Positions 5,447 to 63,568 of a stretch of 64,000 bases of DNA are shown here, one piece after another; position 1 is the stretch's first letter; each line of letters begins with the position of its first letter. The notes beneath the pieces are model-generated. The model had not been told where the DNA came from, ran no database searches, and saw only the letters and a program-made list of their open reading frames with translations. The translations under genes were made by a program, and so were the position numbers. The DNA is from Mobula hypostoma (taxonomy: Eukaryota): the NCBI RefSeq assembly GCF_963921235.1, contig NC_086097.1:167092001-167156000 (forward strand). Direction: 5' to 3'.

Positions 5447-5605
5447 GGCAGAATTGTCATTTTGGTGACTTTGTAACAGTGCTGTGCTAATGGCTATCCT
5501 ACTGTGCCACCATTGATGGAAGATATATGGCTAAGTGACAGAAATAGATGCTAAAACATAGATAATCATAGATTGTTCAAGTATTGTTCTCAGCCAATAG
5601 TACTA

Positions 5606-7195
5606 ATTTTCAATCCTCTGGCCCTGACTGCTTCAAATTCACCATGGATGTCCAGTCCCTGTATACTTCTATCCCCCAACAAAGAAGGTCTTAAAACTCT
5701 CTGCTTCTTTCTCAATAAAAGTATCAACCAAATCCTCTCCACTACCACTCTCCTCTATCAAGCAGAACTGGTCCTCACGCTCAACAATTTCTCCTTCGGT
5801 TCTGCCCACTTTCTCCAGACTCGAGGGGTAGCCACGTGCACCAGCATGGGCCCCAGCTATGTTTGCCTTTTCATTGGAGCAGTCCATGTCCCAAGCTTTC
5901 CCCAGTAATGCTCCCCAACTCTTCCTCTGCTGCATTGACGACTACATTAGCGCTGCGTTTGACAATTTCATCGACGTTGCCTCCAACTTCCACTCTGGCC
6001 TTAAATTCACTTTGTCCAGTTCTGACGTCTCCCTCCCCTTTCTCAATCTCTGTCTCCAACTGTGGGGACCAACTGTCGGCATTTTATAAACATATCGATT
6101 CCCACAGCCATCTTGACTATACCTCTTCCCACTGTGCCTCCTGTAAAAATGCTACTTCATTTTCTCAGTTCCTTCATTTCTGCCGCATCTGTTCTCAGGA
6201 TGAGGCTTTCTTTTCTCAAGACATTAGTGACGTCCTCCTCCTTCAAAGAACAGGATTTCCCTCCCTCCACCATTAATGCTGCCCTCACCTGCATCTCCTC
6301 CATTTCCTGGACATCCACTCACCTTATCTTCCCTCCGTCTTTATCATGACAGAGTTCCTCACCTAACACCCCATGAGTCTCCACACTCAACACATCATTC
6401 TTCACCAATGGGATCCTACCACCAAACACATCTTTACCTTCACCACCCTCCCATTCTCTGTTTTCCATAATAGTTGCTCTATTCGCCCCGCCCCACTAAT
6501 TTCCCTCCTGCCACTTATCTCTGCAAGCAGCCAAAGTGCTACACCAGTCCATTCACCTTCATTCAGGGCCTCACCCAAACAATCCTTCCAGGTGAGGCAA
6601 AACTTCATCTGCGAACCTGACGGGGTCATCTATGACATCCAGTGCTCCAGATGTGGCCTACTCTACATTGGTGAGACCCATCATAAATTGGGGGACCTTT
6701 CGTCGAGCAGTTCCACTCCAACTTCCCGGTGGCCAAACATTTTGATTCCAATTCCCGCTCCAGTTTCTGTCCAGACATGTTGGCCCATGGACTCCTCTTG
6801 CGTCATGATGAGGCCACCCTCATGCCTCCAACCTGATGAGATGAATATTGGATTCTCCTTCCAATAAAATAAAATTCTTCCCCTCCCTTCTTCTACTATT
6901 ACCCACCCTGGCCTCTTACTTCTTTCCAACTGTCTATTACCTCCGCTGTTGCCCCCCCCCCCTTTCTATGGTCCACTCTCCTATCAGATTTTTTTCTCTC
7001 CAGCCCTTTACCTTTCCCACCCTCCACCTTTTTATTCTGGTATCTTTTCCCTTCCTTTCCAGTCCCGAAGAAGGGTATTGTCTCAGAATATCAACTGTTT
7101 GTTTTTTTCCCATGGATGCTGTCTGAACTGCTGAGTTCCTCCAGCATCTTGTGTGATGATTTGGATTTCCAGTATCTGCAGAATGTCTTCTGTTA
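5606..7195 (+). mobile_element. Penelope-like element (Neptune type), degraded RT + GIY-YIG + terminal repeat
   Basis: Frameshifted RT pieces (ELVLTLNNFSFG, GVA..MGPSY, LFLCCIDD) and GIY-YIG (GVIYDIQCSRCGLLYIGET), then a pyrimidine-rich 3' region ending in the CCAGTATCTGCAG terminal motif. Confidence 0.85.
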
Positions 7196-10760: not shown

Positions 10761-11606
10761 AAGCCCTTCAGTGCAGCTCAATCACGAAAAGAAACAAAGG
10801 TAAGTTGATGGGCCTGTGTAATGGAGAATAAAGTACAGAGATGCTGGGAGATGTATTTTGTTTAATATTTTATTACTTATTTGTCTACTTATATTTTTTA
10901 AATATTCTTATTTTTTAAATTATTCATTAGTTTCTAAATTTCTCTGCCATCAAAGATAATTCTCACAAACAGCATATTTCCCCTTCATACTGCTGACTGT
11001 AAAGAACGTCAGGGGAATTTTGAGGCTGGAACTTCTCACAGCACCAACTAATCCTTAAATATCTGGACCTAATGACTGAGGTCTGAGATACAGCAAGGCC
11101 CCTGCATCTGCACACAATGAAAGCACAGGAAAAACGTGGGGATCCTGGGCAGATAGCTCAATCTGGCCCATTCAAATGTCCAGTAACATCATGAACTGAA
11201 TCATTTAAACTCTGGTGGAAATAATGAGAACTTCATTTTTTCATTTTTTTTCATTATTTTTCATTTCTAGTAATAATCTACACTTAAGCTTTTCCAGTAA
11301 GTTTTTCTCTGTCTGAGAAATGGGATGTTCCCAGGTCAACTCAAAGTTTTGTTTCTTCTATGGCATTACAAGGAATGAATGGGAGGAGGCCAACAATCAA
11401 TCTGCTGGAGAACTCGGTTGGTTGAGTAGCATCTATAGGAAGAAAGGAGTCATCGACATTTCAGGTTGAAACAGTGCACAGAACTGAGTGGAGAGGTGAA
11501 GTGACCAATATAAAGTGGAGATGGATAGTTCATCCTAAAACATTGATATTTCCTTTCCCCTCCACTCCCCCAACAGATCCTACATAATCTTCTGAGTTCC
11601 TTCAGC

Positions 11607-12237
11607 ATGCTGGTCTTCATAACAAGGGAAATTGAGTATAAGAGCAATGAGGTCCTTCTGCAGCTGTACAGGGCCCTGGTGAGACCACACCTGGAGTACT
11701 GTGTGCAGTTTTGGTCTCCAAATATGAGGAAGGACATTCTTGCTATTGAGGGAGTGCAGCGTAGGTTCACAAGATTAATTCCCGGGATGGCAGGACTGTC
11801 ATATGTCGAAAGATTGGAGCATCTGGGCTTGTATACTCTGGAATTTAGAAGGCTGAGAGGGGATCTTATTGAAACATATAAGATTATTAAGGGATTGGAC
11901 ACGCTGCAGGCAGGAAGCATGTTCCCGCTGATGGGTGAGTCCAGGACCAGAGGCCACAGTTTAAGAATTAGGGGTAGGCCATTTAGAACGGAGTTGAGGA
12001 AAAACTTTTTCACCCAGAGAGTGGTGGATATATCGTATGCTCTGCCCAGAAGGCTGTGGAAGCCAAGTCTCTGGATGCTTTCAAGAAAGAGATGGATAGA
12101 GCTCTTAAAGATAGTGGAATCAAAGGTTATGGGGATAAGGCAGGAACTGGATACTGATAGTGGATGATCAGCCATGATCACAGTGAATGGCAGTGCTGGC
12201 TCGAAGGGCCAAATGGCCTACTCCTGCACCTATTGTC
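11607..12237 (+). mobile_element. CR1 LINE 3' fragment (ORF2 C-terminus + 3'UTR)
   Basis: ORF LYRALVRPHLEYCVQFWSP...RRLRGDLIETYKI; CR1 3'UTR ending CTCCTGCACCTATTGTC; inserted into a Penelope terminal-repeat remnant. Confidence 0.92.
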
Positions 12238-12800: not shown

Positions 12801-12829
12801 AATGTCATTCTCCGGTAGCACTGAGATCT

Positions 12830-12990
12830 CTTACTATCTCTTCTTTCAGTTAATCCTGACGAAGGGTCTCATCCCGAAACGTCGACTGTGCCTCTTCCTA
12901 GAGATGCTGCCTGGCCTACTGTGTTCACCAGCAACTTTGATGTGTGTTGCTTGAATTTCCAGCATCTGCAGATTTCCTTGTGTTTGCCTC
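12830..12990 (+). mobile_element. Penelope terminal-repeat (pLTR) fragment
   Basis: Highly similar to the 3' end of 23090-23236. Confidence 0.85.
12852..12887 (+). ncRNA. Minimal type I hammerhead ribozyme motif (core intact, one stem I mismatch)
   Basis: AATC-CTGACGA-A-GGG-TCTCAT-CCC-GAAA-CG-TC-GACT. Confidence 0.65.
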
Positions 12991-17218: not shown

Positions 17219-19790
17219 CAAAGTCAAAGTAAATTTATTATAAAAGGTCATATATGTCATCATTTATGACCTTGAGTTTCATTTTCTTCGATCTTAAGTG
17301 GGAAGCTAAATCATTTAAATATTTAGGAATAACCCTGCCGAAGGATCTTTCAATGCTGTCACAGGTAAATTATGGGCCATTAATCTCAGAGATAAAAGCA
17401 GATATGCATAGATGGAATCTTATCCCCTTTTTAAGTTTAAATTCAAGGATAAATACTATAAAAATGAATATTCTTCCTCGATTACTGTATCTTTTCTGTA
17501 CTTTACCTGTGGAGGTGGATGATAATCAATTCAGGGAATGGGACAAATGGATTTCCCGCTTCATTTGGCAAGGAAAGAAACCTAGAATTCGATATAACAC
17601 CTTACAGTTAGGGAAGGAAGGAGGAGGTATGGTTCTTCCTTGCCTGAGAAATTATTTTTATGTCTCACAGATAACCCCTCTATTATATTGGTGTAATAGG
17701 GAATATAAGGCTAGGTGGAAGGAAATAGAATTTGGATTAGTTGACAGTTTTCCTCTACAGGCCTCAATAGCTGACAAAGGATTGATGGCCCAATTGGAAA
17801 AATTTAAAAACAGTTGGATAAATCTTACATTAAAAGTATGGCAGAAGGTGATTAATTCGTGTGGAATTAATAACATGTTAAAACTCTTCAGATGGTGTGC
17901 ATATGATACCGAATTCCTTCCCAACAGAGGAGATAAAAGATTTAAATTATGGATAAAGAAAGGTCTTACAACCTACTTCTCATTTATAGATAAAAGAGTA
18001 TTACAAAGTTTCCCAATCCTGCAGGACAAACATGGCCTAGTACACAATGACTTTTTTTAGGTACCTTCAAGTACGAAACTATGTTAACCAGAGTTGTAGA
18101 TATACAGACCTATCAACAGTAGAATTAGAATTTTTCAAGATCCTGAATTCGGCTTGCAGTTCAATACCTAGTAAATCAGTTTCTCGATTATATAATGCAC
18201 TCTCCCATGCTAAAAATGTAAACACATTGTATATTAAAGAGAAGGTGGGAGAAAGAAGCGGGGTTGGTACTTTCAGAGGAGGCTTGGGGGAAAATATGCA
18301 GCTTTCAGTGGTCCTTGACTAATTCTTCGACTTGGAGAGAACATTGTTGGAAAAATATTGTAAGATACTTCAAGACCCCATATCAGGAAAAATATAAAGA
18401 TACAAACGTGACGTGTTGGAGAAGGTGCGGCTCCAAGGAGGCAAATCATTTTCATATTTTCTGGGATTGCCCTAAATTAAGTATACATTGGGAAAGTATT
18501 CATAGAACATTAGTTAAGGTACTTAGGTCCCAGATACCTCTGAACTTTGAGATGCTCTATTTGGGGCATGTATTGTTTCTTGAACAGAAGGAAGATATAA
18601 AGTTGCTGCAGGTCCTCTTAGCGGCCAGTAAGAAATTAATCACTAGAAAGTGGCTAAATCCAATACCACCTACATTAGAAGATTGGCACGAAATTATCTT
18701 GGAAATATTTAAAATGGAAAAGTTGACTTACTTCCTGAGAATTCAAAAAGAAAAATTTTATCAAATCTGGAATAAATGGATTGAATATATAACCCCAATG
18801 CGAGCAGACTTCAGATGACTCTCCTAATGATTTATATTGCTCTTCTCATCAACACAGTAATATTGCTAACGTAAGCACCCCTAGTCTAAATGATTACTGT
18901 TTTTGTTTTCTTTTGGAAAATAGAAAATTAATACAAGTAAAGGAAAAGATTTGGGAAAGGGATAAAAAATGATAAAATTAAGTAAATAAGTACATAGGGA
19001 TTGGATAATTATGTCTGGGGGCAGGAGCAAGCATGAACAAGTTAGGATATAAACATCTACAATGGTTGTTACATCGGCTTACATACAACATTTTGGACCA
19101 GAAGAAATGGTCCAGAAGAGATTTATGGAAACTATTGTTACTATGTTTCTTAACAACTAATACCATTACTTAGCATAATAGATTAGAATTACCACTGTAC
19201 ATAATTATCTATTTAAGTGTCTAATTTCCTTTTATATCATCTCAATATGTACTTAAGAATGTATAAATAATTATAGTTTTATACATATAAAAAATGGTAA
19301 AGGTTATAAGTGTGGAAAAAGTACATGATACTTGTGAATTCCTTATCCAAATAAAAATAAAATTTTAAAAAATGTTTCATTTTCTTGCAAGTACTTACAG
19401 GAAAACAGGAAATGCAGTTTATGAAAAACTATACATAAACAAAGACTGAACAAACAGACAATGTACAAAAGACAAAAAGTTCAAATAAAAAAAACTAAGA
19501 GCATGAGCTGTAGAACACTTGAAAGTCCGTCTGTAGGTTACGGAATCAGATCAGTGTTGAGCTGAGATACTACAAAGTTATTCATGCTGGTTCAGGAGCC
19601 TGATGGCTGCAGGATAATAACTAATCCTGAACCTGGTTGTGTAGGATCCAAGGTTCCTGTACCTCTTGCCTGATGGTACTGGTGAGAAGCATAGCCTGTA
19701 TATTGGGGGTCCTTCATAATTGGAAACTGCTTTCTCGTGGCAGCACTCCCTATAAATGTGCTCAGTAGTGGGCAGGGCTTTGCCTGCGAT
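17219..19790 (-). mobile_element. Rex1/Babar-type 3' fragment split by an L1 insertion (17219-17288 and 19374-19790)
   Basis: Reverse-complemented tail caaagtcaaagtaaatttatt at 17219; PSGKRYRN..TTRFR-like motif on the reverse strand near 19600-19680; the halves join across the L1 TSD. Confidence 0.65.
17289..19373 (+). mobile_element. 5'-truncated L1-clade LINE (ORF2 C-terminal half, frameshifted)
   Basis: FKYLGI, RINTIKMNILPRLLYLF, GKEGGGMVLP, zinc knuckle CWRRC..HIFWDC, stop at 18818, AATAAA and A-rich tail; 13-bp TSD GTTTCATTTTCTT (17276-17288, 19374-19386). Confidence 0.93.
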
Positions 19791-20050: not shown

Positions 20051-22425
20051 TGTTATTGACAACACTGGATTCACAGAGTCATAGAACACTACAGCACAAA
20101 AACAGGCTGCTTGGCTTAGCTAGTCCATGGCAAACTTGTTCTGTCTAGTCCCATCAACCTGCACTCAGACCATAGTCCTCCACACCCTTCCCGTCCAAGC
20201 ACCTATCCAAATTTCTCTTAAATCTTGATATCAAACCCACATCCACCACTTCTGCTGGCAGCTCGTTCCACACTTCACCACCTGAGTGAAGTAGTTCATC
20301 TTCATGTTCCCCTTAAATATTTCAATTTTCACCTTTAACCCATGACATTTAGTTCTAGTTTCACCTAACTTCACTGCAAAAAGCCTGCTTGCAATTATTC
20401 TATCTATACCCCTCAATTTTTAATATCTATCAAATCTACTCTCATTCTGTTACACTCTAGGGAATAAAGTTTTAACCTGTTCAACTTTTCCCTATAACTC
20501 AGGTCCTCAAGTCCCAGCAACATCCTTATGAATTATATCTGCACTCTTCCAATTTTATTGACATCTTTTCTGTAGGTAGGTGACCAAAACTGCACAAAAT
20601 AGTCCAAGTTAGGCCTCACCAATGTCTTATACAAGTTCAGCTTGACATCCCAACTCCTGTACTCAATTCTTTGATTTATGAAGGACAAATGACTTGTTTA
20701 TGACTCCATCTACTTGTGACACTACTTTCACTGAATTATAGATCTGTATTTCCAGATCCCTCTGTTTGACCACCCTTCTTAGTGTCCCACAGCTTGCTGT
20801 GCAAGTCCGACCCTGTTTTCTCCTCCCAAAAGTCCAACACCTCACACTTCTCTGCATTAAATTCCATCTGCCATTTTCAACCTATATTTCCAGCTAGTCC
20901 AGATCCCGCTGCAAGCTTTGTTAGCCTTCCTCACAGTCCACTATGCCCACAATCTTGGTGTCAACCCCAAATTTGCTGATCCAGTTCTTTGCATTATCAT
21001 CAGATCATTACTATAGGTGACAAAGAACAGCAGACCCAGCAGCAAACCCTGTGACATACCGCTTGTCACAGGCCTCTAGTCAGTGAGGCAACCACCTACT
21101 ACCACGCTCTGGTTTCTACCGTGAAGCTAGTGTTTAATTCAATTTACAACCTCATCCTGAATGCCAAGTCACTAAACCTTCTCGACCAACCTCTCTTGCG
21201 TGACCTTGTCAAAGGTCTTGCTACAAGTACATCCACTGCCTTGCCTTCAATAATTTTCCCAGTAACTTCCTCAAAAACATCCTCAAGATTGGTTTGACCT
21301 AACTTACCACACACAAAGCCATGTTGACCATCCTCAATCAGTTTATGACTTTCCAAATATGTATATATCCAGTTCCTTAAAATGCTTTTCAATAACTTAC
21401 CCATGACTGATATTAGGCTCAAGGGTCTACAATTTCACAGCTTATTCTTAGAGCCTTTCTTAAGCAATGGAACATTTATAAACCTGTTATCTTCAGACTT
21501 TTATCCTAACAGGCACATACAAACTTTGTACTCTCAAAATTGTGCTTTTGAAAGCATCCCACACTTGCCAGATCCTTCTGATACTATCAAAATTGGTTTT
21601 TCTCCCACTTGGAGTCTCAACCCGCAGACCAGAACTATCCTTTTCAATATTTACTTTGAAGCTAATGGCATTTTGATCACTAGATGCAAAGTGTTCCCTT
21701 ACACAAACTTCTGTCACCTGCCCCGTTTCATTCTCTAACTGCAGATCAAGTGTCACATACTCTCCCATTGGGACTTCTACATACTGATTAAGGAAACTTT
21801 CATGGACACATTTGACAAACTCTATCATAACTAGTTCTTTTACAGTATGGGAGTTCCAGTCAATATGTGGAAAGTTAAAAATCACCTTCTAAAACAGCCT
21901 TTTGTTTCTTGCAACAGTCTGCGATCTCTCTACAAATGTGTTTCTCTAAATTGCGCGGACAGTTGCATGGTCTGTAATGTAATCCCATTAACATGGTCAT
22001 CGCTTTCTTATTCATCAGTTCTACCCATAACACCTCACCAGTTGATTTCTCCAGTCTGTCCCGACTGAGCACTGCCACGGCATGTTCCCTGACTAGTAAC
22101 ACCACCCCTCCTGCTTTAATCTCTGCCACTCTGTTGCGTCTAAAACAACAGAACCTTGGAATATTAAGCTACCAGTCCTGCCTCTCCTGCAACCAAGTCT
22201 CACTAATAGCTACAATATTATAATTCCATGTGTTGATCCGTGCCCTGAGGTCATCTGCCTTTTCTATGACACTTCTTGCAATATCCTATGATACTTCATC
22301 AATATGTGGGAAGTTATACAACTCAGGACATTAGTTGCACTATGCACAACATTTTGATTAACGCAACAGCAATTTTTATGTGTGGTGAACGCAGCAGGCC
22401 AGGCAGCATCTGTAGGAAGAGGTGC

Positions 22426-22461
22426 AGTCGACGTTTCAGGCCGAGACCCTTCGTCAGGACT
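22426..22461 (-). ncRNA. Minimal type I hammerhead ribozyme motif (intact)
   Basis: Reverse strand AGTC-CTGACGA-AGGGTCTCGGCCT-GAAA-CG-TC-GACT: stem I AGTC/GACT, CUGANGA and GAAA cores, palindromic ACGU, GUC cleavage triplet. Confidence 0.8.
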
Positions 22462-23105
22462 AACTGATGGAAGAGTGAGTAAGGGATTTGAAAGTTGGAG
22501 GGGGAGGGGGAGATCCAAAATGATAGGAGAAGACAGGAGGGGGAGGGATGGAGCCAAGAGCTGGACAGGTGATAGGCAAAAGGGATACGGGAGGATCATG
22601 GGACAGGAGGTCTGGGAAGAAAGACCGGGGGCGGGGGGGGGGACCCAGAGGATAGGCAAGGGGTATATTCAGAGGGACAGAGGAAGAAAAAGGAGAGTGA
22701 GAGAAAGAATGTGTGCATAAAAATAAGTAACGGATGGGGTACGAGGGGGAGGTGGGGCATTAGCGGAAGTTAGAAACAGATGGGGTACGAGGGGGAGGTA
22801 ACTTCCGCTAATGCCCCACCTCCCCCTCGTACCCCATCCGTTATTTATTTTTATATACACATTCTTTCTCTCACTCTCCTTTTTTTCCCTCTGTCCCTCT
22901 GAATATACCCCTTGCCCATCCTCTGGGTCCCCCCCCCCTTTGTCTTTCTTCCCGGACCTTCTGTCCCATGATCCTCTCTTATCCCTTTTGCCAATCACCT
23001 GTCCAGCTCTTGGCTCCATCCCTCCCCCTCCTGTCTTCTCCTATCATTTTGGATCTCCCCCTTCCCCTCCAACTTTCAAATCCCTTACTCACTCTTCCTT
23101 CAGTT

Positions 23106-23141
23106 AGTCCTGACGAAGGGTCTCGGCCTGAAACGTCGACT
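23106..23141 (+). ncRNA. Minimal type I hammerhead ribozyme motif (intact)
   Basis: AGTC-CTGACGA-AGGGTCTCGGCCT-GAAA-CG-TC-GACT. Confidence 0.8.
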
Positions 23142-24396
23142 GTACCTCTTCCTACAGATGCTGCCTGGCCTGCTGCGTTCACCAGCAACCTTTATGTGTG
23201 TTGCTTGAATTTCCAGCATCTGCAGAATTCCTGTTGACAACATTTTGATTCCTGACTTTGTCCTAAATCTTAACAATATCTGCCTTCACAATCTCTCTAC
23301 TATCTGATCTGGCACTCTGCCTCCTCCCCCCCCCCCCCATCCTCCTTTAAATCTAGATTAAACAGCCCTCCTCCCCCTGTTCAGCACTAGCAAAACTTGC
23401 TTCTAGGATATTAGTCCCCCTCCAGTTCAGGTGCAAACTGTCTCTTCTGTACATGCCTCAGCTTCCCTGAAAGAGAGCACAATGAACCAAAAATCTTATG
23501 ACCTTCCTCCTACACCAAATCCTTAGCCACATGTTGAAATGGATAATCTTCCTAGTTCTGGCCTCACTAGCGTGTGGCATGGGTAGCAATCCTGAGATCA
23601 CAACCCTGGAGGTCCTGCCCTTCAACTTAGCACCTAACTACATAAACTCACTTTGCAGGACCTTGTCACTCTTCCTACCTATGTCATTGCTACCTATATG
23701 GACCACTATCTCTGGCTGTTCATCCACCCACTTAACAGACCTGAGAACTCAAACTGAGATGTTCTGGACCCTGGCACCCTAGAGGCAACATACCATCTGG
23801 GAATCTTGTTCTCATCCACAGAACCTCCTGTCCATTCCCCGAACTAATGAATCCCCTTTCGACACAGCTCACCTCCTCTCCCCCACTTCCCTTCTGAGCC
23901 ACAGAGCTAGACTCAGTGCCAGTGACCTGCCTGCTGTGACTTACCTCTATTAAGCCATTACCCCACCACCCAAACAGTATCCGAAATGGTACACCTGTTG
24001 TTGAGGGGGTGGCCACGGGGGTCTTCTTCACTTCACCCCTTTCCCCTTCCCGATTGTCATCCAATTTCCCATGTCCTGCATCCTGGGTGTAGCTACCTCT
24101 CTATATGCCTTATCTATCACCCCTTCAGCCTCCCAAATAATCTGGAGTTCATCCAGTTCCAATTCCTTAACAAGGATTGTTAGAAGCTGCAGCTGGATGC
24201 ACTGGAGGCCTCCCTGCCTTCCCTTATGCAAGTAGAGCGTTCAACTATCCTGCCTGGCATCCCTCCTGTTCTAACTGAGCAAGTATAGAGAAGAAAAAAT
24301 ATAAGTAAACTGTGGGGGGGAAAAAGATCTACCTTCAGATTTTCACTTTCTCTCACTGGTCTTCAAGAGCTGAAGTCTCAAAATTCCCACTCTATT

Positions 24397-25327
24397 TTCC
24401 AACGGGATCCCACCACTAAGCACACCTTTCCCTCCCCCCCTCTCTCTGCATTCCGCAGGGATCGCTCCCTACACAACTCCCTTGTCCATTCATCCCCCCC
24501 ATCCCTCCCCACTGATCTCCCTCCTGGCACTTATCCGTGTAAGCGGAACAAGTGCTACACATGCCCTTACACTTCCTCCCTTGCCACCATTCAGGGCCCC
24601 AAACAGTCCTTCCAGGTGAGGCATCACTTCACCTGAGAGTCGACTGGGGTGATATACTGCGTCCGGTGCTCCCGATGTGGCCTTTTATATATTGGCGAGA
24701 CCCGACGCAGACTGGTTTTCATGCTTTGCTGAACATCTACGCTCTGTCTGCCAGAGAAAGCAGGATCTCCCAGTGGCCACACATTTTAATGCCACATCCC
24801 ATTCCCATTCTGATATGTCTATCCACGGCCTCCTCTACTGTAAAGATGAAGCCACACTCAGGTTGGAGGAACAACACCTTATATTCCGTCTGGGTAGCCT
24901 CCAACCTGATGGCATGAACATCAACTTCTCTAACTTCCGCTAATGCCCCACCTCCCCCTCGTACCCCATCTATTACTCATTTTTATGCACACATTCTTTC
25001 TCTCACTCTCCTTTTTCTCCCTCTGTCCCTCTGAATATACCTCTTGCTCATCCTCTGGGTCCCCCCCGCTTGTCTTTCTTCCCGGACCTCCTGTCCCATG
25101 ATCCTCTCCTATCCATTTTGCCAATCACCTGTCCAGGTCTTGGCTCTATCCCTCCCCCTCCTGTCTTCTATCATTTTGGATCTCCCCCTCCCCCTCCAAC
25201 TTTCAAATCCCTTACTCACTCTTCCTTCAGTTAGTCCTGACGAAGGGTCTCGGCCTGAAACGTCGACTGCACGTCTTCCTACAGATGCTGCTTGGCCTGC
25301 TGCGTTCACCAGCAACTTTGATGTGTG
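24397..25327 (+). mobile_element. 5'-truncated Neptune-type Penelope element (Cys linker + GIY-YIG + terminal repeat), young
   Basis: PGTYPCKRNKCYTCPY linker, GVIYCVRCSRCGLLYIGET, FAEHLRS...LGSLQPDGMNINFSNFR* (stop at 24943); 13-bp TSD TTCCCACTCTATT (24384-24396, 25328-25340). Confidence 0.92.
25233..25268 (+). ncRNA. Minimal type I hammerhead ribozyme motif (intact)
   Basis: Identical 36-mer to 23106-23141, on the coding strand of the Penelope element. Confidence 0.8.
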
Positions 25328-25514
25328 TTCCCACTCTATTGCTGTCCAGTCCACCAATGGCCGCTTTGCTCATCCCTGCCTTATTTTAATTTGTTTTCTC
25401 AATCAATTCTCATCACTTACTGGCTGATGTAATCAGTCAGCGAACCTGATTGAGCTACATCTTCTCATGCTTTGGATCTCCAATTGACTGCTGCTCAATG
25501 TGGAAAGTTAAAAT

Positions 25515-25759: not shown

Positions 25760-27890
25760 TCCAGCCCTTTTACAGTATGGGAGTCCAAATCAGTATGTGG
25801 AAAGTTAAAATCACCTACTATCAAAACCTTGCGTTTCAAGCAACAATCTGCAATCTTTCTATAAATTTGTTCCTCTAAGCCCCACTGACTGTGGGTGGCC
25901 GATAATTTAATCTCATTAATGTGGTCATCTTTTCATATGCCTCAGTTACACCCATATACAATACCCATGAGGACAACATGAGTGAGGTTGATGTTCTGGA
26001 GCACGTTAATATTAAGGGAGAGGAGATGTTGGAGTTGTTAAAATACATTAGGACAGATAAGTCCCCGGGGCCTGACGGAATATTCCCCAGGTTGCTCCAT
26101 GAGGTGAGGGAAGAGATTGCTGAGCCTCTCGCTAGTATCTTTGTGTCCTCGTTGTCCACAGGAATGGTACCGGAGGATTGGAGGGAGGCAAATGTTGTCC
26201 CCTTGTTCAAAAAAAGGTAGTAGGGATAGTCTGGGCAATTATAGACCAGTGAGCCTTACGTCTGTGGTGGGAAAGCTGTTGGAAAAGATTCTTAGAGATA
26301 GGATCTATAGGCATTTAGAGAATCATGGTTTGATCAGGGACAGTCAGCATGGCTTTGTGAAGGGCAGATCATGTCTAACAAGCCTGATAGAGTTCTTTGA
26401 GGAGGTGACCAGGCATATAGATGAGGGTAGTGCAGTGGATGTGATCTACATGGATTTTAGTAAGGCATTTGGCAAGGTTCCACACAGTAGGCTTATTCAG
26501 AAAGTCAGAAGGCATGGGATCCAGGGAAGTTTGGCCAGGTGGATTCAGAAATGGCTTGCCTGCAGAAGGCAGAGGGTGGTGGTGGAGGGAGTACATTCGG
26601 ATTGGAGGATTGTGACTAGTGGTGTCCCACAAGGATCTGTTCTGGGACCTCTACTTTTTGTGATTTTTTTTAACAACTGGATGTGGGGGTAGAAGGGTGG
26701 GTTGGCAAGTTTGCAGACGACACAAAGGTTGGTGGTGTTGTAGATAGTGTAGAGGATTGTCAAAGATTGCAGAGAGACATTGATAGGATGCAGAAGTGGG
26801 CTGACAAGTGGCAGATGGAGTTCAACCCGGAGAAGTGTGAGGTGGTACACTTTGGAAGGACAAACTCCAAGGCAGAGTACAAAGTAAATGGCAGGATACT
26901 TGGTAGTGTGGAGGAGCAGAGGGATCTGGGGGTACATGTCCACAGATCCCAGAAAGTTGCCTTACAGGTAGATAGGGTAGTTAAGAAAGCTTATGGGGTG
27001 TTAGCTTTCATAAGTCGAGGGATAGAGTTTAAGAGTCGCGATGTAATGATGCAGCTCTATAAAACTCTGGTTAGGCCACACTTGGAGTACTGTGTCCAGT
27101 TCTGGTCGCCTCACTATAGGAAGGATGTGGAAGCACTGGAAAAAGTACAGAGGAGATTTACCAGGATGCTGCCTTGTTTAGAGAGTATGCATTATGATCA
27201 GAGATTAAGGGAGTTAGGGCTTTACTCTTTGGAGAGAAGGAGGATGAGAGGAGACATAATAGAGGTGTACAAGATAATAAGAGGAATAGATAGAGTGGAC
27301 AGCCAGCGCCTCTTCCCCAGGGCACCACTGCTCAATACAAGAGGACATGGCTCTAAGGTAAGGGGTGGGAAGTTCAAGGGGGATATTAGAGGAAGATTTT
27401 TTTACTCAGAGAGTGGTTGGTGCATGGAATACACTGCCTGAGTCAGTGGTGGAAGCAGATACACTAGTGAAGTTTAAGAGACTACTAGACAGGTATATGG
27501 AGGAATTTAAGTTGGGGGCTTATATGGGAGGCAGGGTTGAGGGTCGGCACAACATTGTGGGCCAAAGGGCCTGTACTGTGCTGTATTACTCTATGTTCTA
27601 TATACAAACTCTCCAGCCTGCTCTGTCTGAGCTCTGCCTTGACATTTTCCGTGACCAGTAATGCAACCCTCCCACTCTGTCATGTCTAGAACGACAGAAC
27701 CCTGGACACTGAGCTGTCAATCCTGCCCCCCTGCAACCAAGTCTCACTAATGGCTACAGTGTCACAATTTCATGTGCTGATCCAAGCCCCAAGCTCATCC
27801 ACCTTCCCTCCGATCTTCCTTGCATTGAAATATATACAGCTCAGAACATTAGTCCCACCATGCTCAATCTTTCAATTCATGACTTGTATT
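25760..27890 (-). mobile_element. Degraded CR1 APE-region fragment split by a younger CR1 (25760-25961 and 27600-27890)
   Basis: Reverse strand YRPP and VGDFNF motifs; homologous to 21840-22340. Confidence 0.6.
25962..27599 (+). mobile_element. CR1 LINE, 5'-truncated, RT domain to 3' tail, young
   Basis: [53 protein letters not shown]; few frameshifts; tail CTCTATGTTCTA; probable 8-bp TSD ATATACAA (25954-25961, 27600-27607). Confidence 0.95.
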
Positions 27891-30505: not shown

Positions 30506-30601
30506 CTTGCATTGTCTTTCTTGTAGGTTCGGAGAAGAGTGGAATAAGGAGGAGGAAGATGAGGTAGACAAATGATAGTCCATTGTATCGAAACAAACAT
30601 G
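30506..30601 (-). CDS. PIEZO2: PIEZO2 internal coding exon (exon 2 equivalent), piezo-type mechanosensitive ion channel component 2
   Basis: Minus strand reads ...cttgcctttcAG|CATGTTTG...ACAATGCAAG|GTaag, 96 bp, phase 1 at both ends. Translation (A)CLFRYNGLSFVYLIFLLLIPLFSEPTRKTMQ(G) closely matches the recalled PIEZO2 N-terminus ACAFRYNGLSFVYLIYLLLIPLFSEPTKTTMQG, and the length matches the recalled 96-bp mammalian exon 2. Exons 1 and 3 were not found in the window. Confidence 0.95.
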
Positions 30602-31184: not shown

Positions 31185-32472
31185 TTGGACCCATTGCAAT
31201 TTGCCTATCACCAATAGGTCAACGGCAGATGCAATCTCAATGGCTCTCCACACGGCTTTAGACCACCTGGACAACACAAACACCTATGTCAGGATGCTGT
31301 TCATCAACTATAGCTCAGCATTTAATACCATCATTCCCACAATCCTGATTGAGAAGTTGTAGAACCTGGGTCTCTGTACCTCCCTCTGCAATTGGATTCT
31401 CGACTTCCTAACTGGAAGACCACAATCTGTGCGGATTGGTGATAACATCTCCTCCTCGCTAACTATCAACACCGGCGCACCTCAGGGGTGTGTGCTTAGC
31501 CCACTGCTCTACTCTCTATATACACAACAGTGTGGCTAGGCATAACTCAAATACCATCTATAAATTTGCTGATGATACAACCATTGTTGATAGAATTGCA
31601 GGTGGTGACGAGGGGGGGTACAAGGCTGAGATATGCCAACTGGTGAAGTGGTGCTACAGCAACAACCTGGCACTCAATGTTAGTAAGACGAAAGAGCTAA
31701 TTGTGGACTTCAGGAAGGGTAAGACGAAGGAACACATACCAATCCTCATAGAGGGATCAGAAGTGGAGAGAGTGAGCAGTTTCAAGTTCCCGGGTGTCAA
31801 GATCTCTGAGGATCTAACCTGGTCCCATCGATGTAGTTATAAAGAAGACAAGACAGTGGCTATACTTCATTAGGAGTTAGAAGAGATTTGGCATGTCAAC
31901 AAATACACTTAGAAACCTCTATAGTTGTACCATGGAGAGCATTCTGACAGGCTGCATCACTATCTGGTATTGGGGCGGGGGGGCAGGGGGGGGCTACGGC
32001 ACAGGACCGAAAGAAGCTGCAGAGGGTTGTAAATCTAGTCAGCTTCATCTTGGGTACAAGCCTACAAAGTACCCAGCACATCTTCAGGGAGTAGTGTCTC
32101 AGAAAGTCAGTGTCCATTATTAAGGATATCCAGCACCCAGGGCATGCCCTTTTCTCACTGTTACCATCAGGTAGGAGGTGCAGAAGCCTGAAGGCACACA
32201 CTCAGCGATTCAGGAACAGCTTCTTCCCCTCTACCATCCGATTCCTAAGTGGACATTGAATCCTTGGACACCATCTCACTTTTTAAAAAAATATACAGCA
32301 TTTCTGTTTTTTGCACATTTTTTAAAATCTATTCAGTATACTTATACTGTAATTGATTTACTTATTTATTATTTTTTTCTCTCTCATCTAAACGATGTAT
32401 TGTATTGAACTGCTGCTGCTAAGTTAACAAATTTCACATCACATGCCAGTGATAATAAACCTGATTCTGATT
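31185..32472 (+). mobile_element. Rex1/Babar-type LINE, RT domain to 3' tail
   Basis: [61 protein letters not shown]; tail AATAAACCTGATTCTGA. Confidence 0.9.
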
Positions 32473-34769: not shown

Positions 34770-35465
34770 GTCACAACAGATTCTGCAGATGCTGGAAATC
34801 TTGAGCAACACTTACAAAAAAACTCAGCAGGTCAGGCTCATCTATGGAGGGAAATAAACAGTAGACTCTTCGGGCTGAGAACAGGGTTGCCAATTTTCTC
34901 ACTCCCAGATAAGGGACAAAAGTAGCAGTCAAATACAGGACACTTGTGTTTACCCCGAGAAAGACTACCATGACCATGACCATGAAGCCTTGTGCAGGCA
35001 CCTGTGTGCGCATGCATGACGTGCGCACGTGTGTACGTGCCGATTTTTTTCTACAAATCGGTTTTGGCTTCATCTTCCCAATCCTGATACACTGTACATA
35101 CATTATTTCTACTTTACATAGGCTGTGTATTTATCATATCATTCCTGCTTTTACTATATGTTAGTGTTATTTTAGGTTTATATGTTATTTGGTATGATTT
35201 GTTAGGTTATTTTTTGGGTCTGGGAACGCTCAAAAATTTTTCCCATATAAATTAATGGTAATTGCTTCCTCGCTTTACGCCATTTCAGCTTACGAACACT
35301 TTCATAGGAACGCTCTACCTTAGCGGGGGAAATACGAGACAAAGGTGGTCCCGTATGGGACAAACCAATTTAGCCCAATATACTGGATGTCCTGGCAAAT
35401 ACGGGACAGTTGGCAACCCTAGCTGAGACCCTTAATCAGGATTGGAAAGGAAGGGGAAGAGGCCC
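34770..35465 (-). mobile_element. Penelope terminal-repeat remnant split by a hAT MITE
   Basis: ctgcagatgctggaaatc...gtagactcttcgggctgaga [MITE] gctgagacccttaatcagga, the reverse complement of the hammerhead-bearing terminus. Confidence 0.7.
34882..35421. mobile_element. hAT-superfamily MITE (540 bp), copy 2
   Basis: TIRs CAGGGTTGCCAA / TTGGCAACCCTA; 8-bp TSD GCTGAGAA / GCTGAGAC (7/8). Confidence 0.9.
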
Positions 35466-40960: not shown

Positions 40961-42573
40961 TTTTTTAAATTTCAAAATATACTTTATTCAAAAATAAAAT
41001 TAGATACAATAACCATTCAGTAACTTTCCATCTTTTACATACGTTTCCATTATTGTCTATACATATCCATACTTATAGCCACCCATGTGGCCTTCAGTTG
41101 TTCACCTTACCACATCATTGTTGAGGGGTATACTCCCCGCCCACCGACCCCTCCCACTCCCACGGGTGGAGAAACCTATACCGTGGTCCTTCCCCACCGG
41201 GCCCTTGCGGTGGCTGCACCGAGTTTCAGTGCATCCCTCAGCACGTACTCCTGCAGCCGAGAATGGGCCAGTCGGCAGCATTCTCCCACAGATATCTCCA
41301 TGTGCTGGTAGATCATCAAGTTTCGGGCTGACCAAAGAGCGTCTTCATCAAGTTGATGATCTGCCAGCAGCACCGGATGTTGGTCTCCGTGTGCATCCCC
41401 GGGAACAGCCCGTAGATCAGAGAGTCCTCTGTTACACAGCTGCTAGGGATGAAACGTGACACTAGCCCGTCCATCCTCCTCCACACCCTCCCTGCGAACT
41501 GACAGTGTGCAAAGAGGTGGGTCACAGACTCCTCCTTACTGCAGTCCTCCCGTGGGCAGTGGGGTGCGGAGACGACGTCCCGGGCGTATAGGAAGGATCT
41601 GACTGGGAGGGCCCCTCTCACCGCCAGCCAGGCGAGGTCCTGGTGCCTGTTGGTGAGATCTGGCGATGAGGTATTTTGCCAGATGAACTGGACAGTCTGC
41701 TCAGGGAACCACCCCACTGTGTCCATCATGTCCTTCTCCTGCAGTGCCTGCAGGACATTACGTGACAACTACTGCCTGATGGCCCTGTGGTCAAAGGCGT
41801 TGTCCTGGAAGAACTTTCCTATGAAGGACAGGTATGGCGGCAACGACCAGCTGACTGGGGTGTTGCGCAGGAGTGGGGCCAGACCCATCCTTCGTAGCCA
41901 GGGCGACCGGTAGAACCTGGGCACATAGTGGTACTTGGTGCCCACATACCTGGGTTCTACACACAACCTGATACAGCCACACATGAAGCTGACCATCAGG
42001 GTGAGGGCAACATTGGGGACTTTCTTGCCCCCATTGTCCAGGGACTTGTGCATGGCAGCCCGTCTGACCCGCTCCATCTTGGATGCCCAGACAAATCTGA
42101 AGACAGCGCGGGTGATTTCCGAACTGTAGGAGTGGGGGACGGGCCACTCCTGCGCCAAGTACAGCAGCCCTGAGAGCACCTCACACCTAATGACCAGGTT
42201 CTTGCCCGTTATCGATAGGGAGCGCCCTCCCCACAGTCCCAGTTTCTGTTTCACTTTGGCAGTCTGCTCCTGCCAGTTCTTGTTGCACGCCTCAGCCCCT
42301 CCGAACCAGATCCCCAACACCCTCACGTGGTCAGACCTGATGGTGAAGGGGACACTGGATCGGTCGGGCCAGTTGCCGAAGAGCATGGCTTTGCTCTTCA
42401 TGCGGTTGACCTTGGCCCCCGATGCTAGCTCGAACTGTTCGCAGGTGCCAATCAACCTGCGAACTGACCTTGGAACAGAGCAGAAGACGGTGACGTCGTC
42501 CATGTACAGGGAGGTTTTCACTTGGGTCCCTCCACTGCCTGGCAGCGTCCACCCTCTTATGCCCTCATCCCTC
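40961..42573 (-). mobile_element. Tx1-type (L1-Tx1 clade) retrotransposon, 5'-truncated
   Basis: RT YMDDVTVF, ASGAKVN, VLGIWF, CPREDC..ESVTHLFAHC; ORF ends RWGRTTV* at 41176; AATAAA plus A tail; GC-rich; possible 3-bp duplication GAT (40958-40960, 42574-42576). Confidence 0.9.
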
Positions 42574-45500
42574 GATAGGGTTGAAAAAACTTCTCTCCAG
42601 AATTTCTCTAGACTAGGACAGGCCCAGTACATATGGATAAGAGAAGCCTCAGCCCCTTTACGCTTATCACAAATGGGACTAATGTCAGTGTAAAACGGCG
42701 ATAATTTAGTTTTGGATATATGAGCCCTGTGCACAACCTTGAACTGCAAACGGCAGCGGCGAGCACATAGAGAGGTTGAGTTGACTGACTTAAGAATTGA
42801 ATCCCAAATCGCATCAGATAAAGAAATATTTAGATTATGTTCCCAGGCAGTTCTAATTTTATCGAAGGGGGCACACCTCAAAATCACTAACTTATCCTGA
42901 ATAGCAGATATTAAAACTTTACACAATGGATTGATACAAAGAAACAGGTCCAGAACATTTTTCTCAGGCATCTCAGGAAAGTTTGATATTAAAGGGTTAA
43001 TGAAATGTCTAATTTAAAGATATCTAAAGAGATGAGTATTAGGTAGGTTAAATTTTACAGACAGTTGTTGAAAAGTTGCAAAACGATTATCTATGAAAAG
43101 GTCTTCAGAGCGCCTAATACTGTTGCTATACCAATTGTAAAACATTGAATCCTGCATAGAAGGTAGGAAAAGGTGATTGTGTAAAATAGGGCTAGAGAGA
43201 GAAAAACCATGAAGACCATTACATTTTCTGAACTGAGCCCATATTCTCAGAGTATGTCTAATAAGAGGATTAACAATAAGTCTAGGCAAATGACAAGGAA
43301 GTGCGGAACCGAGAAGTGCAGAAATGGAAAGATCCTTAGTAGAATTCAACTCCATTGCCACACATTTTGGGCAGTCAGACTGATCATGGAAGAAAGACCA
43401 AAAAATAAGACAACGAATATTGGCTGCCCAATAATATAAACAGCACAGGGTAATTCAAACTTCAGGGAAAACCACTTGCTGGTCAGGAGGATTGAAATTT
43501 GTGTCAGAGGCTTCCTTTGTATGTGTACAAGGCTTTCAGTTTGCTTCAGGCATTCATAAAGGAAACTCCTTGTTTGTTTTCAAATGACAGGAGATATTCA
43601 TCTATCATTTTCAGGCTAAATATCTAGGCCTTTTTATTACTTCAAAGGAATGTCACTTACGCAGCAAATTGTCGAGTGTGTTTGTTAAAAACCTGGAGAT
43701 CAGTGTATTGAAAACGCAAAGAAATGCTTGATGTAGAATCAGTTGCCACTGAATTGAAAATCACAGCAGACATTTGCAATCAATTAATACTGCAGATAAA
43801 ATCTGCACTTCAGGATATTAAATAACAGAAACTGCACTTGGCATTATTAATTGTGCCTAGAAATAAATCTTCACAAACATTAGCACAGACTGCATGGAAG
43901 TCATGCTGAAGAGAAACAAACATCTGAGACAAAGCAGCCCTCAAATCTGAAAACAATATGCTCCTTTATTCAAGCTATTACTAATTCATTGTTACTAGAC
44001 AATAACTATCTCACTCGAATGCCCAATAGTTACTTATCTCACATTCTTCAGTTTGGTAAACATGACACTGAAAGCTTCTGAAAAACATTCCTTCAACAGA
44101 ATTTAACAACGAATAAAGCCCACAGGCCAGGCAATGATAAAACAGCTGGATGTCTCCATGGCTAACTCCAGAATAAATACAATTTGGCTAAATACAAAAA
44201 GAATTCAGTTGACTTCCACACAAGACACAACCCTAGTATCACTGCAGCCAGATATTATTCATTTTTTCGTATTACCTCTAGCCAATTTATCTTTAAGCTA
44301 TTTTCAGGATCCAAGAAAATGGATTGATTATTCACATTCAGATAAGACTATCAAGAGAAATACAAAGGGAACTGTTCAGATTTCAGAATAGCTTATTTGC
44401 AAAGAAGGCTTTTCACAGGAAAAGTTATCCATGACATACTCAGGAGGATGCAGAAGTCTGCCTACAGGAAATCTTTGCTTTGCTTCCAGCTGTGGTTTCT
44501 ACCATAGCACAGAATATATTGATCTACTCAAACCTCAAGAAGCCCTAATCTTCTTCTTTTGTTAATCCAATTCTTTGCCTTCAGTATTAACCAATCAATC
44601 TAGGGTTAAAAGCTAACTGAATCGTTGTACACCAACCACAAAGTTAGTCCAGGAGCAAGGAGGTACCAAGATAATTGGAGGTTAAATTCTGCCACACAAA
44701 CACCACCCTCTATACCCCCTGGCTGTACAGACAAAAGAAGTCCTGTTCAAACAATTTACAGCCCTCAAAAATCATACTTAATGTGTTTGTCTTAAAAGAA
44801 GGGAACTAATTGAAGTATTACAAATTGGCATTGTTGACATTTCATAATATAGAAATAGGGAGACCACCAAGCCTCTTAAGCCTGTTGCAATGAGATCATG
44901 GGTAGTCTGTGACTTATGATTAGGCACTTGAAGGAACAATAGACTGTGGATGCTAGAAATGTGGAGCAGCACAGAAAATATTGGTCATTCCAACACCAGT
45001 ACAGAAGAAGGGTTTCAGCCCAAAATTTTGACTGTTAATTTCCCTCCATAGATGTTGCCTGGCCTGCTGAGGTGCTCCAGCATTTTGTGTGTTGCTGCAA
45101 GTACTTGAATGTCTTCATATCCCTTTTAACCAGCCGTTATCATAATCCCATCAACATCAAGTTTATAATTGATGATTGTTGTCTGCAGATGCAAGCGTAT
45201 CCTGGTCCAATTTATCCTAAGAAATTGTACTTATGCCTGCAGTATACTTATCAATCAGCTTACACTGAAAAAGTTAACTAGCTAGCATCTGTATGCAGTT
45301 TTCATTGTTGGACCGGGTCAATATGTACAATTACTGTAAAAAAAAACGTCTCTGAGAAAGAATGTTCTGATAGTTTCTATAAAAGTCAAAAATTTAGAAA
45401 ATGATATGCACTGGGTGAAAGAGGCTTATCTTCCAATCAGCTTCAATGGATTTATTCAGATACTTTTGACCCATGGTTAGATATCCTGCTGTTCTTAATT

Positions 45501-54185: not shown

Positions 54186-55309
54186 TTTTCTACGCTCTCT
54201 TAAAAGAGCCATATTAGCATTTATATTTGACATTGCTGAAAGTAAGTTGAGAGTCAACAGCCACTTGGATGTTATAAATATTATGAACATCATGAATTCC
54301 GATTTCCAAATATCCCAGGATAATCTCACAAAAAGCTATCACACATGATGGTGCCATGCAACTGGATATAGTAGACTGATTTATTTTTTCCAAGTGTAAT
54401 AAATACAAAAAATATTGCAATAGTCATCAGGTCAGGCCACATCTGTGGAAAAACAAAATGTTCAGGTCAAAGACCTTTCCTCAGAGCTTTCTCTTCCCAC
54501 AGATCAGGCCTGATTTGCTGAACATTCCCAGTATTTTCTGCTTTTCTTTTGGATTTCAAACATATGCAGATTTTTTACATCATATTCTACATCTTCAAGT
54601 GGCTTGTGCTATGTACTTTGCTGAATGTACTTAGAGATTTTTTTTTTCCCTAGTTCATTCATTCAAGAGATATGAACATCACTGGAAATCCAAGAATCTT
54701 CTGTCCATTCTTGCTTCCCCTTAGACTGAGACCGCAGTTGAAAAGCAATCAGATGTCACATCTAGATTGCACACGTAGGTGCCATATTGGACTGGGCAAG
54801 AATGGACATCAGCAAACCATATGAGTTTCTCTGACAATCCATTACTAAGGCTAGCTTTTTTTTTTAAATACTTACTCCAAATTACCTAATTTTACATTCA
54901 AGTTATATTAATGCTGTAACTTAATAAATCAATTATACCTCAATGATCATAATGATGCACAAATTTAGTTCATTATTGAATGAGCTTTTTTTAAATAAAA
55001 AACCAACGTCAAATATTTGAATTCGTGTTTATATCCCGCATAACCTCTCCATAAAATTACCTCAGTGAGGGAACAATGAGTTCACCAAGTGTTTTTCCAC
55101 TTGTGCAATATTCCATTATCATTTTCAACACATATAAATTATGCAAGGTTGTTGGATATTCAAGTCTGATGGAATCATAATATATAATATTGCATGCCAT
55201 TTAAATCAAGCAATAAACATGTCAACAGCATATGGTGAAAATTAAAGTTCTACATTTTACAGTGGAGAAATGTGAGGTGAAGGCCATGCTTGTTCATTTG
55301 ATATACTTG

Positions 55310-58830: not shown

Positions 58831-59012
58831 GTTTCTCCAGTTAGCAGATAATTTCCCTCCACGCCTCTCTGACGTAGTGGGGAACCGCGTACAAGGCAAG
58901 TTACAGCAGTAGTTTGCCATTGCCTTCTGCCGGGTGAGTTTCCAAAGAGATCACCAGCTCGTAATCCAATTCAGCCTAGGCTGTAGGACAAAGTGAACAG
59001 TAACAAATTGGC

Positions 59013-59144
59013 AAACATGAGGAAATCTGCAGATGCTGGAATTTCAAGCAACACACATCAAAGTTGCTGGTGAACGCAGCAGGCCAGGCAGCATCTTTAG
59101 GAAGAGGTACAGTCGACGTTTCGGGCCGAGACCCTTCGGTCAGG
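59013..59144 (-). mobile_element. Penelope mini-insertion consisting only of hammerhead + terminal tail
   Basis: 10-bp TSD ACAAATTGGC (59003-59012, 59145-59154); hammerhead core has a 1-nt insertion (CTGACCGA). Confidence 0.85.
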
Positions 59145-59876
59145 ACAAATTGGCTTTGCTTTAAACTGCCAACTCAATTAGGAGGTTCCATTAATTTCAA
59201 CAGAATTGGGCAACAAGCAGAACATGAAAAGCAAGGCCGAAGTGAGGGCAGAAAATGCTGGGGAAACACTTCAGGTCAGATGACAGGGTAATGAAGTTGA
59301 CCATTTCACAGACCTGAAATATGAACAGCTCCCTCCCCACCTCTGCTACCTGACAATTGAATGTTTCAAACATTTCCTTTTTCATTTCAGACATCAAGCA
59401 TTTGTAGGATTTTGAGTTCAATTTGATGTTTTAAAAATATTTATTATGGACAGCTTGTGATGGATTTTCACCCCAAAGATTTACTTAAATTAAAGTTGGA
59501 TCAATGGAGGAAGCTTTCTGTTTATACTCTCTGGCTATAAAGTAACATTATGGGATCCCATGCACAGAGGAACACAGAGTTTGGTACCTCACAGTTAATT
59601 TTCTTTCATTGTGTCCTCAATCCCAGCTTTCCTCCTCTGTGCTGCTGCCTTGCACGACCGTCCTGGTCTTTCACCTACATTCCTCGACAACCCAGAAAAC
59701 CAGCTAGTTTCAGCACCGAGACATTTCTTGCTAAAACAACACACACTTATGTGAAGCCATGTAGAAAAGTTCCAAATGGACTTAGTGCTAGAAAAAGCTT
59801 CAGGTACTAGACGTGTTTTTATTTCAGATATGATTCCACAAAAACTCTTTCAAATCCATGGGAATGAAAGGACAGC

Positions 59877-63003: not shown

Positions 63004-63568
63004 TGCTCCATTAACCTGCCAGTTTAAACCAGTGCAATCAAGTACATTTGAAAATTACACATAATTAAACATGATAATTTACTAAAACTAAGTAATTTTT
63101 TAAGATTATCACCTGATATAAATCAATCAAGACTCACCCAACTGAGCTGAGCAAGAAAGGCTGTCTTGGAATAATATAACTTGCCTTGCCTTGCCAGATA
63201 CTTAACACAAAGAAAGCTTTAATGTAGATCAATCCAAGTGAATTATGGGAGTACTACATTCTATTGAATCACTTTGTAGAGTAGATCTTGTTAAGATGTT
63301 TAAACATTTCGGTCTTTATAAACATTTTTAGCTTAAATTGCAAGTGAAAATCTAGTGTGATTAACAAAATTACTTTGTGATTTTGCTCGTCTTTCAGGAG
63401 AATTGGAGAATCCAATGAAGCTTATACCGATTTAGTTTATTTCTACTAATCAGTTATAGTCATAAACAGCTTTCACACTTGGTCTACATCTCTGGAAGGG
63501 CATACAGCAACTTGATCCAGATGTTATACTAATTGGTGAACTGGCCTCCTTTAACATGTTATAAAATG

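Follow-up and report, generated by a model that had tools for sequence, protein, structure and literature searches.

Minimal hammerhead ribozymes (min-HHRs) of Penelope-like elements (PLEs) form a class that is already published (Cervera and De la Pena 2014, PMC4209133). According to that study, a single motif did not cleave and dimers or trimers did so weakly; it further reports Neptune elements of fish, coelacanth and frog genomes with thousands of single, dispersed motifs, opposite-strand motif pairs 100-700 bp apart, and a G10.1-C11.1 consensus above 80%, with G10.1-U11.1 occurring in several motifs, including those of Schistosoma, cichlid and Xenopus. For PLEs in general, an inverted truncated partner is described as standard architecture (Craig et al. 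2021, PMC8557442). In PAc, a Poseidon element of the green anole, the ribozyme needed the element's protein in order to cleave, mutating it left insertion in vitro unimpaired, and reverse transcription, with uncut RNA as its main template, set out from an internal stem-loop in the tail (Frangieh et al. 2024, PMC11167929). Li et al. 2026 (10.64898/2026.07.22.740005) report Neptune and Poseidon as the only PLEs of vertebrates, as well as non-LTR retrozymes in vertebrates, including one chondrichthyan. Cartilaginous fish are not among the motifs examined from Figure S3 of PMC4209133, and our literature search, PMC4350176 included, returned no study of PLE hammerheads in sharks or rays. A search on intronic ribozymes added nothing on PLE motifs.

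Here we describe how such motifs are distributed over a 64-kb window, which is the whole stretch of DNA that was analysed. A single 36-mer occurs three times in identical form (Table 1), where 100 shuffles gave an expectation of 0. We consider it highly probable that we are dealing with minimal type I hammerheads, borne by the end repeats of truncated copies of a very abundant PLE, likely a Neptune, and that they are likely passive passengers of the PIEZO2 gene. With 11 matches to a profile built from the window's own copies (E<0.01), intronic copies are to be expected.

Table 1. Coordinates of the features discussed, numbered from the first letter of the window.
Feature	Position	Strand	Remarks
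min-HHR	22426-22461	-	sole intact copy sense to PIEZO2; predicted cut between 22430 and 22429
min-HHR	23106-23141	+	in insertion A, on its right arm; antisense to PIEZO2
min-HHR	25233-25268	+	in insertion B; antisense to PIEZO2
3' splice-site-like signal	22460-22490	-	pyrimidine tract and CAG/TAG; stem I opens with its final AG
Insertion A	22360-23236	.	one PLE insertion with two pseudo-LTR arms head to head
Insertion B	24397-25327	+	PLE truncated at its 5' end, retaining linker, GIY-YIG remnant and pseudo-LTR; antisense to PIEZO2
Broken ORF end of insertion B	24391-24943	+	CX4CX2C linker, YIG motif, CCHH residues, stop just before pseudo-LTR
Older related PLE copy	5600-7187	+	reverse transcriptase and endonuclease remnants, decayed HHR 7061-7096, tail (translations)
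Short same-family copy	12826-12978	+	about 26 nt, HHR and tail; antisense to PIEZO2
Solo HHR and tail insertion, 132 nt	59013-59144	-	sense to PIEZO2, upstream intron
PIEZO2 coding exon, 96 nt	30506-30601	-	residues 23-53, with acceptor and donor

The preliminary description had listed the three identical 36-mers, a near-intact copy at 12852-12887 and seven decayed copies, and all of these were recovered: the three are exact at their positions, the near-intact copy carries four mismatches (one of them in stem I) around an intact core with C11.1, and the decayed copies were found in seven out of seven cases. The descriptor search that it had proposed as a check matches exactly three times in the window, at the 36-mers, and not once in 60 order-3 Markov simulations. 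Its account of the anatomy (both catalytic boxes, stems I and II, a GUC triplet, and a palindromic ACGU in place of stem III) agrees with the sequence. Stem I is AGUC/GACU, 5 bp including a closing U-G, and the core reads CUGACGA, an extra A, stem II, GAAA, CG and UC, such that the boxes CUGANGA, GAAA and NUH are present in all three. Stem II is GGGU/GCCU, 4 bp with a CUCG loop and a G10.1-U11.1 wobble. The extra base sits between 9 and 10.1, as in PLE min-HHRs, and A15.1-C-G-U16.1 is palindromic without a stem III loop, the same as in published motifs; the cut is predicted after GUC. While the 10.1-11.1 pair is G-U in the three 36-mers, it is G-C in the copies at 12852 and 59111, the latter with a 1-nt insertion inside CUGANGA. 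The copy at 34860 is one half of a motif split by a MITE (a small inverted-repeat element), the other half lying at 35406-35456. Across the old and young subfamilies within the window, all core nucleotides are kept.

The 36-mer fits the published min-HHR consensus and closely resembles PLE motifs listed there, such as that of the Acropora Neptune (PMC4209133). It shares with the motifs of that study the CUGANGA box, the extra base, stem II, GAAA, the palindromic CG, the UH and a short stem I, and its surroundings share a pyrimidine-rich 5' flank, a pseudo-LTR 3' of the endonuclease and a prevalence of single motifs from truncated copies. It differs in its stem II, which is short (4 bp) and in the youngest form closed by G-U, and 11 matches in 64 kb is a high density by comparison. 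The notion that U11.1 is a disabling change is not supported, since the same base is present in published motifs; a literature search on its kinetic effect gave nothing usable.

What carries these motifs? The copies at 22426 and 23106 are the arms of one insertion, and the three 36-mers are therefore carried by two insertions, not three. In insertion A, the left arm (22360-22799, minus) and the right arm (22799-23236, plus) are about 95% complementary, flanked by a 14-bp target duplication (22346-22359 / 23237-23250). This inverted twin arrangement did not figure in the preliminary description. As a side observation, Rfam matches to microRNAs at 22660-22912 reflect the inversion hairpin, and all score below the gathering scores. 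Insertion B is flanked by a 13-bp duplication (24384-24396 / 25328-25340), and in translation its GIY-YIG remnant is broken by one stop and one frameshift; its Pfam match (E 0.037) is below cut-off. The min-HHR lies about 290 nt past the GIY-YIG stop, i.e. within the pseudo-LTR. The translations are 89% and 93% identical to the ray protein P0001, which has a weak GIY-YIG match itself, and the nearest of 17 matching proteins are those of Mobula hypostoma (89%) and Hypanus sabinus, which makes a myliobatiform ray the likely host. Reverse transcriptase precedes GIY-YIG in the relatives P0001, P0005 and P0016, with Pfam matches below cut-off, and the older copy at 5600-7187 shows the order of reverse transcriptase, endonuclease and pseudo-LTR within the window, in which no intact ORF is present.

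By published definitions (PMC8557442), the CX4CX2C linker excludes Penelope and Poseidon, and the CCHH residues exclude Hydra, leaving Neptune or Nematis. As such, the carrier is likely a Neptune-type PLE, placed by these linker and CCHH definitions, and the preliminary description's placing of the min-HHR in the pseudo-LTR of such an element is supported. Like Neptune as defined there, the family combines a reverse transcriptase, a CX2-5CxxC linker, a GIY-YIG with CCHH and a hammerhead in the pseudo-LTR with 5' truncation, an inverted truncated partner and a variable 3' tail; unlike it, the insertions have clear target duplications of 10-14 bp and do not lie in (TA)n microsatellites. The 10-bp duplication belongs to the solo insertion (59003-59012 / 59145-59154), and around the copies at 12852 and 45000 we sought one but saw none that was clear. 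The motif is followed by about 60-105 nt before a copy ends, around a hairpin predicted in the tail. Since the motif is near the 3' end of the element, nearly every truncated copy retains one. A 25-letter pattern from this tail had 0 loci in metagenome contigs and 0 in viral contigs.

The position of the hammerhead upstream of the tail hairpin at which copies end, and the retention of the uncut motif, are as in PAc, and copies that retain an uncut motif fit with unprocessed RNA serving as the template, as reported for that element (PMC11167929). PAc differs in having no cysteine linker (Penelope/Poseidon clade), and its ribozyme was assayed while the ray motif is known from sequence. Retrozymes likewise carry type I hammerheads related to those of PLE pseudo-LTRs; they form head-to-tail tandem arrays, whereas the ray copies are dispersed monomers or a head-to-head pair (10.64898/2026.07.22.740005). 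A retrozyme array was thus discarded as a candidate: tandem units are absent, and intact motifs on the same strand belong to separate insertions, at distances of 2.1 and 10.3 kb.

The location inside PIEZO2 introns, as claimed in the preliminary description, is borne out by the coding exon at 30506-30601, which matches PIEZO2 (PDB 6kg7) at 27 of 31 residues with an E of 1.4e-12, compared to 1e-4 for PIEZO1. It also matches the Pfam family Piezo_TM1-24. Going by the structure of the human gene, we take it to be exon 2. No further PIEZO exon was recognised among 34 splice-bounded candidates, or by eye among 156 hydrophobic frames of the minus strand. The strand of the gene (minus) had not been given before. 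It follows that three of the four intact-core copies (12852, 23106 and 25233) are antisense to PIEZO2 and cannot form a hammerhead in its pre-mRNA. Between the one sense copy, at 22426, and the closest exon identified there are 8 kb; the young family has its next sense copy 36.7 kb off, with a broken core, and a second intact sense copy that could act as dimer partner is not present within the window.

Folding was predicted with a nearest-neighbour model, in which tertiary contacts, proteins and kinetics are ignored. In the predicted fold of the pre-mRNA, all 36 bases of the sense motif pair with its twin at 23106-23141, and forcing the hammerhead fold would cost 73 kcal/mol with both arms present and 7 with the left arm alone. 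The isolated 36-mer is predicted to prefer an inactive fold in which the core GACG pairs with CGUC, and a double-hammerhead fold is placed at -9.5 kcal/mol vs -20.0 for two inactive monomers. With a folding z-score of -0.37, the motif is not unusual in this respect. As the sense copy is predicted to be locked in a long hairpin with its twin and the other intact copies are antisense, the motifs are likely inert in PIEZO2. The earlier suggestion that potentially self-cleaving RNAs were seeded throughout this gene therefore does not stand, with just one of four intact cores sense, predicted to be sequestered by its antisense twin and left without an intact sense partner. The conserved intronic hammerheads known from amniotes have the canonical form, are competent as monomers and are each conserved at a single locus. 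They too are borne by introns; the ray motifs instead are minimal, multicopy, mostly antisense and decaying. Judged as a host-co-opted intronic ribozyme, which would be sense, foldable in context and conserved beyond its flanks, the locus does not qualify, and the invariance of its 36-mers is not above chance.

Between the arms of insertion A, 17 of 386 columns differ; the other two comparisons among the three repeats give 20 of 381 and 19 of 381, for a divergence of 4.4-5.3%. At this divergence, an invariant run of 36 columns has a probability of about 0.06 at the place of the motif, and of 0.90 somewhere in the repeat. We rejected the reading that the three 36-mers are identical because of selection, as 13 of 355 windows of the alignment are invariant, and a run of at least 36 appeared in 90% of 20,000 random placements. 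A contig of a second organism (record 17) spans the left junction of insertion A with 120 and 49 letters on either side, and includes a private micro-inversion at this junction. Since insertion A is common to this second organism, it predates that split. The family had been called young and recently active: it is younger than the decayed copies, a relative statement only, with repeats 4.4-5.3% apart and an insertion that two organisms have in common.

Family-wide variation was read from contigs aligned to 22240-22620, originating from four runs and three organisms (A, B and C), with 87,368, 76,114, 13,119 and 5,670 records; run X15 is only putatively RNA and consists of contigs only, the other three are DNA-type, and depth in these contigs is not copy number. 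Contigs diverge at the borders of stem I (22425/22426 and 22459-22461) at five of the six listed loose-end places in each of the DNA-type runs, and at two of six in run X15. At 22425 and 22461, the loose letters look like the flanks of the older subfamily, which makes the motif a conserved island among subfamilies. Inside the 36-mer, eight of eight variant sites are CpG-type transitions among the 40 of 65 variant rows listed, and the catalytic G12 is changed to A in 3.5, 5.5, 8.7 and 2.3% of the depth of the four runs. Such CpG-type changes, including that of G12, fit neutral decay after insertion. The three 36-mers each keep all four CpGs; family-wide, each of these sites is changed in about 7-15% of depth. 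The share of depth with C at position 11.1 is 19% in organism A, 29% in B and 75% in C, and 21% in the putative RNA run, such that U11.1 is a subfamily trait and the dominant form in organisms A and B.

An excess conservation of the catalytic core over the rest of the terminal repeat had been put forward as a check, and it proved weak, although the motif as a whole does behave as a conserved island: core mismatches amount to 13 of 66, vs 58 of 210 in the tail of six old copies, and variant sites to 0 of 36 within the motif vs 8 of 202 outside it, counting change classes listed in full (P 0.26). A second Fisher test, with 0-1 of 36 vs 24 of 202 sites (P 0.016-0.079), was set aside because CpG-type sites were dropped only inside the motif, and it drew on 40 of 65 variant rows. 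Variants of G8 and G1.1 are not among the 40 of 65 rows listed; three C>T places beyond the listed rows of run X1 match three unlisted CpGs, and this absence therefore is no evidence of conservation. The sense copy is conserved no better than the two antisense copies.

The outer edge of stem I has features of its own. An AG is found at this edge in 8 of 11 copies examined, with a pyrimidine fraction of 0.75-0.95 in 9 of 11, and the edge at 22460-22490 also fits the initiator-like YYANWYY, which is a common pattern (1.4% of sites). The loose ends behind 22459 and 22460 are long with low agreement (0.33-0.35), like unique flanks, and the copy at 59013-59144 starts inside the 5' strand of stem I, as judged by alignment and target duplication. 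No loose end at the cut site is found among the 24 of 999 rows listed, and no places with many molecule ends are listed in the family contigs. In Drosophila virilis, the Penelope intron 416-491 (PMC2377424) ends at the 5' end of helix I (PMC4209133). From sequence, it is plausible that a discrete RNA or cDNA end lies at the outer edge of stem I, with a candidate splice site or start there, but loose ends of this kind could also arise from old subfamilies mixed together. We put forward, with considerable reservation, that the smallest mobile unit is an uncut ribozyme-plus-tail RNA of about 130 nt, with its 5' end at the AG opening stem I and not at the cut site. If true, the end of reverse transcription would be set by the fold of the ribozyme, by a 5' intron or by a start at the AG, PLE ends would become SINE-like hammerhead elements, and this would offer a direct handle on the role of the PLE hammerhead.

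Could the motif then have been kept as a structural or boundary signal that no longer cuts, even in the RNA of the element itself, acting as a splice acceptor, start site, protein-binding site or reverse-transcription stop? Short copies that hold the whole uncut motif, such as that at 59013-59144, would agree with this, as would, in the 24 of 999 loose-end rows listed, the piling up of ends along stem I's 5' edge and not at the cut site, the replacement of the consensus C by U11.1 in the dominant form of organisms A and B, the predicted preference of the monomer for pairing its core GACG with CGUC, and the unimpaired insertion of anole ribozyme mutants in vitro (PMC11167929). Conversely, the wobble also occurs in the published min-HHRs of Schistosoma, cichlid and Xenopus (PMC4209133), and the core nucleotides have all been kept in old and young subfamilies, which would be needless for a pure boundary signal. 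Taken jointly, loss of cutting and such a signalling role appear unlikely to us. That the likeness to a hammerhead is a chance match in an ordinary repeat is scarcely credible: the folding z-score is unremarkable and the Rfam search of the window returned 31 matches at E<=1 with hammerhead not among them, yet the descriptor stayed empty in all simulations, the conserved island is bounded by stem I itself, and the motif combines its placement in a pseudo-LTR with all four published min-HHR hallmarks except for the wobble (PMC4209133).

A further alternative is a sense copy that cuts the PIEZO2 pre-mRNA, for instance helped by PLE protein or by another PLE RNA as dimer partner, and thereby tunes how the mechanosensor is spliced or expressed. 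Its core is intact and sense to the gene, the insertion is common to two organisms, and protein-assisted activity of a PLE ribozyme is possible (PMC11167929). Against this, the antisense arm is transcribed ahead of the sense copy and is predicted to pair with it completely, there is no intact sense partner in the window and the nearest exon found is distant; furthermore, conservation is no better than in the antisense copies, and the invariance is expected by chance. We regard such cutting as very improbable. Under the reading that we prefer, of hammerheads in PLE end repeats that ride along in PIEZO2, two motifs in the element's own RNA would pair through ACGU and thereby build stem III, and cutting after GUC would be slow, probably occurring only with the element's protein, as in other PLEs. 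Selection on master elements would retain the motif while its flanks change, and copies would decay neutrally once inserted. Within the PIEZO2 pre-mRNA, the antisense arm would be made first and trap the sense motif in a hairpin of about 400 bp, so that no cleavage follows.

Were the PIEZO2 pre-mRNA really cut, this would make a striking example of a sensory gene acted on by the ribozyme of a transposon, but nothing here points in that direction. Rather, intronic PLE motifs would usually be harmless, most of them being antisense, broken, or paired with an inverted twin. With these findings, the known range of minimal hammerheads in PLEs comes to include a ray-type genome, and the family is abundant enough for counts of insertion ends and of conserved core positions, with a bearing on the role of the hammerhead in endonuclease-bearing PLEs (PMC8557442).

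At the inversion junction of insertion A, where a minus-strand and a plus-strand arm of the Penelope-like element (PLE) family meet, 33 nt of the left arm are duplicated (22767-22799), as a template switch would do. These duplicated nucleotides form a hairpin and are the source of weak microRNA-family matches. The micro-inversion in the tail of the same arm (see table) is also carried by organism B, one of the three organisms.

Features of the PLE family and other retroelements in the window
Feature	Position	Strand	Remark
Micro-inversion, 18 nt	22360-22382		Tail of insertion A left arm; inside predicted tail hairpin
Second acceptor-like signal (pyrimidine tract, CAG), ATG directly after	23151-23160 and equivalent places in other copies		About 15 nt past the hammerhead
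Old hammerhead copy, two halves	35456-35421 and 34880-34778	minus	Interrupted in stem II
Long pyrimidine-rich tandem region	61634-63014		Just 5' of decayed hammerhead at 62910
Further retroelement remnants filling introns	26108-27438, 11547-12167, 17233-18818, 31463-31873, 41316-43454

Head-to-head pairing is also seen in older PLE copies, namely 60096-61300 (minus) with 61263-61621 (plus), 11391-11611 and 54424-54572, while tail-only relics lie at several places (1241, 1969, 29234, 59959). The tandem region is possibly an expanded pseudo-LTR. Among the scanned frames of the further intronic remnants, four out of six match RVT_1. The split hammerhead copy is interrupted by an element of about 520 bp, with terminal inverted repeats of 11 nt and a target duplication of 7-8 bp, which we take to be a hAT-like MITE; a third terminus of the same kind is located at 4913.

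Within 22240-22620, the putative RNA run X15 shows T>C at 15 places, versus 3-5 in the DNA runs, which corresponds to A>G on the sense strand of the element. CpG decay is furthermore about 1.5-4 times lower in X15 than in run X1. For a run that is only putatively RNA, and from another individual, this pattern could reflect either editing, or expression from a few young copies.

The second acceptor-like signal, together with its ATG, is present in both young and old copies of the family. In the sense copy, the pyrimidine tract ahead of the splice-acceptor-like CAG/TAG carries a private change at 22468, where the family letter at the equivalent position accounts for 97-99% of contig depth. Such a change would make a cryptic splice acceptor in PIEZO2 less effective; only one base is concerned, and the difference may be due to chance.
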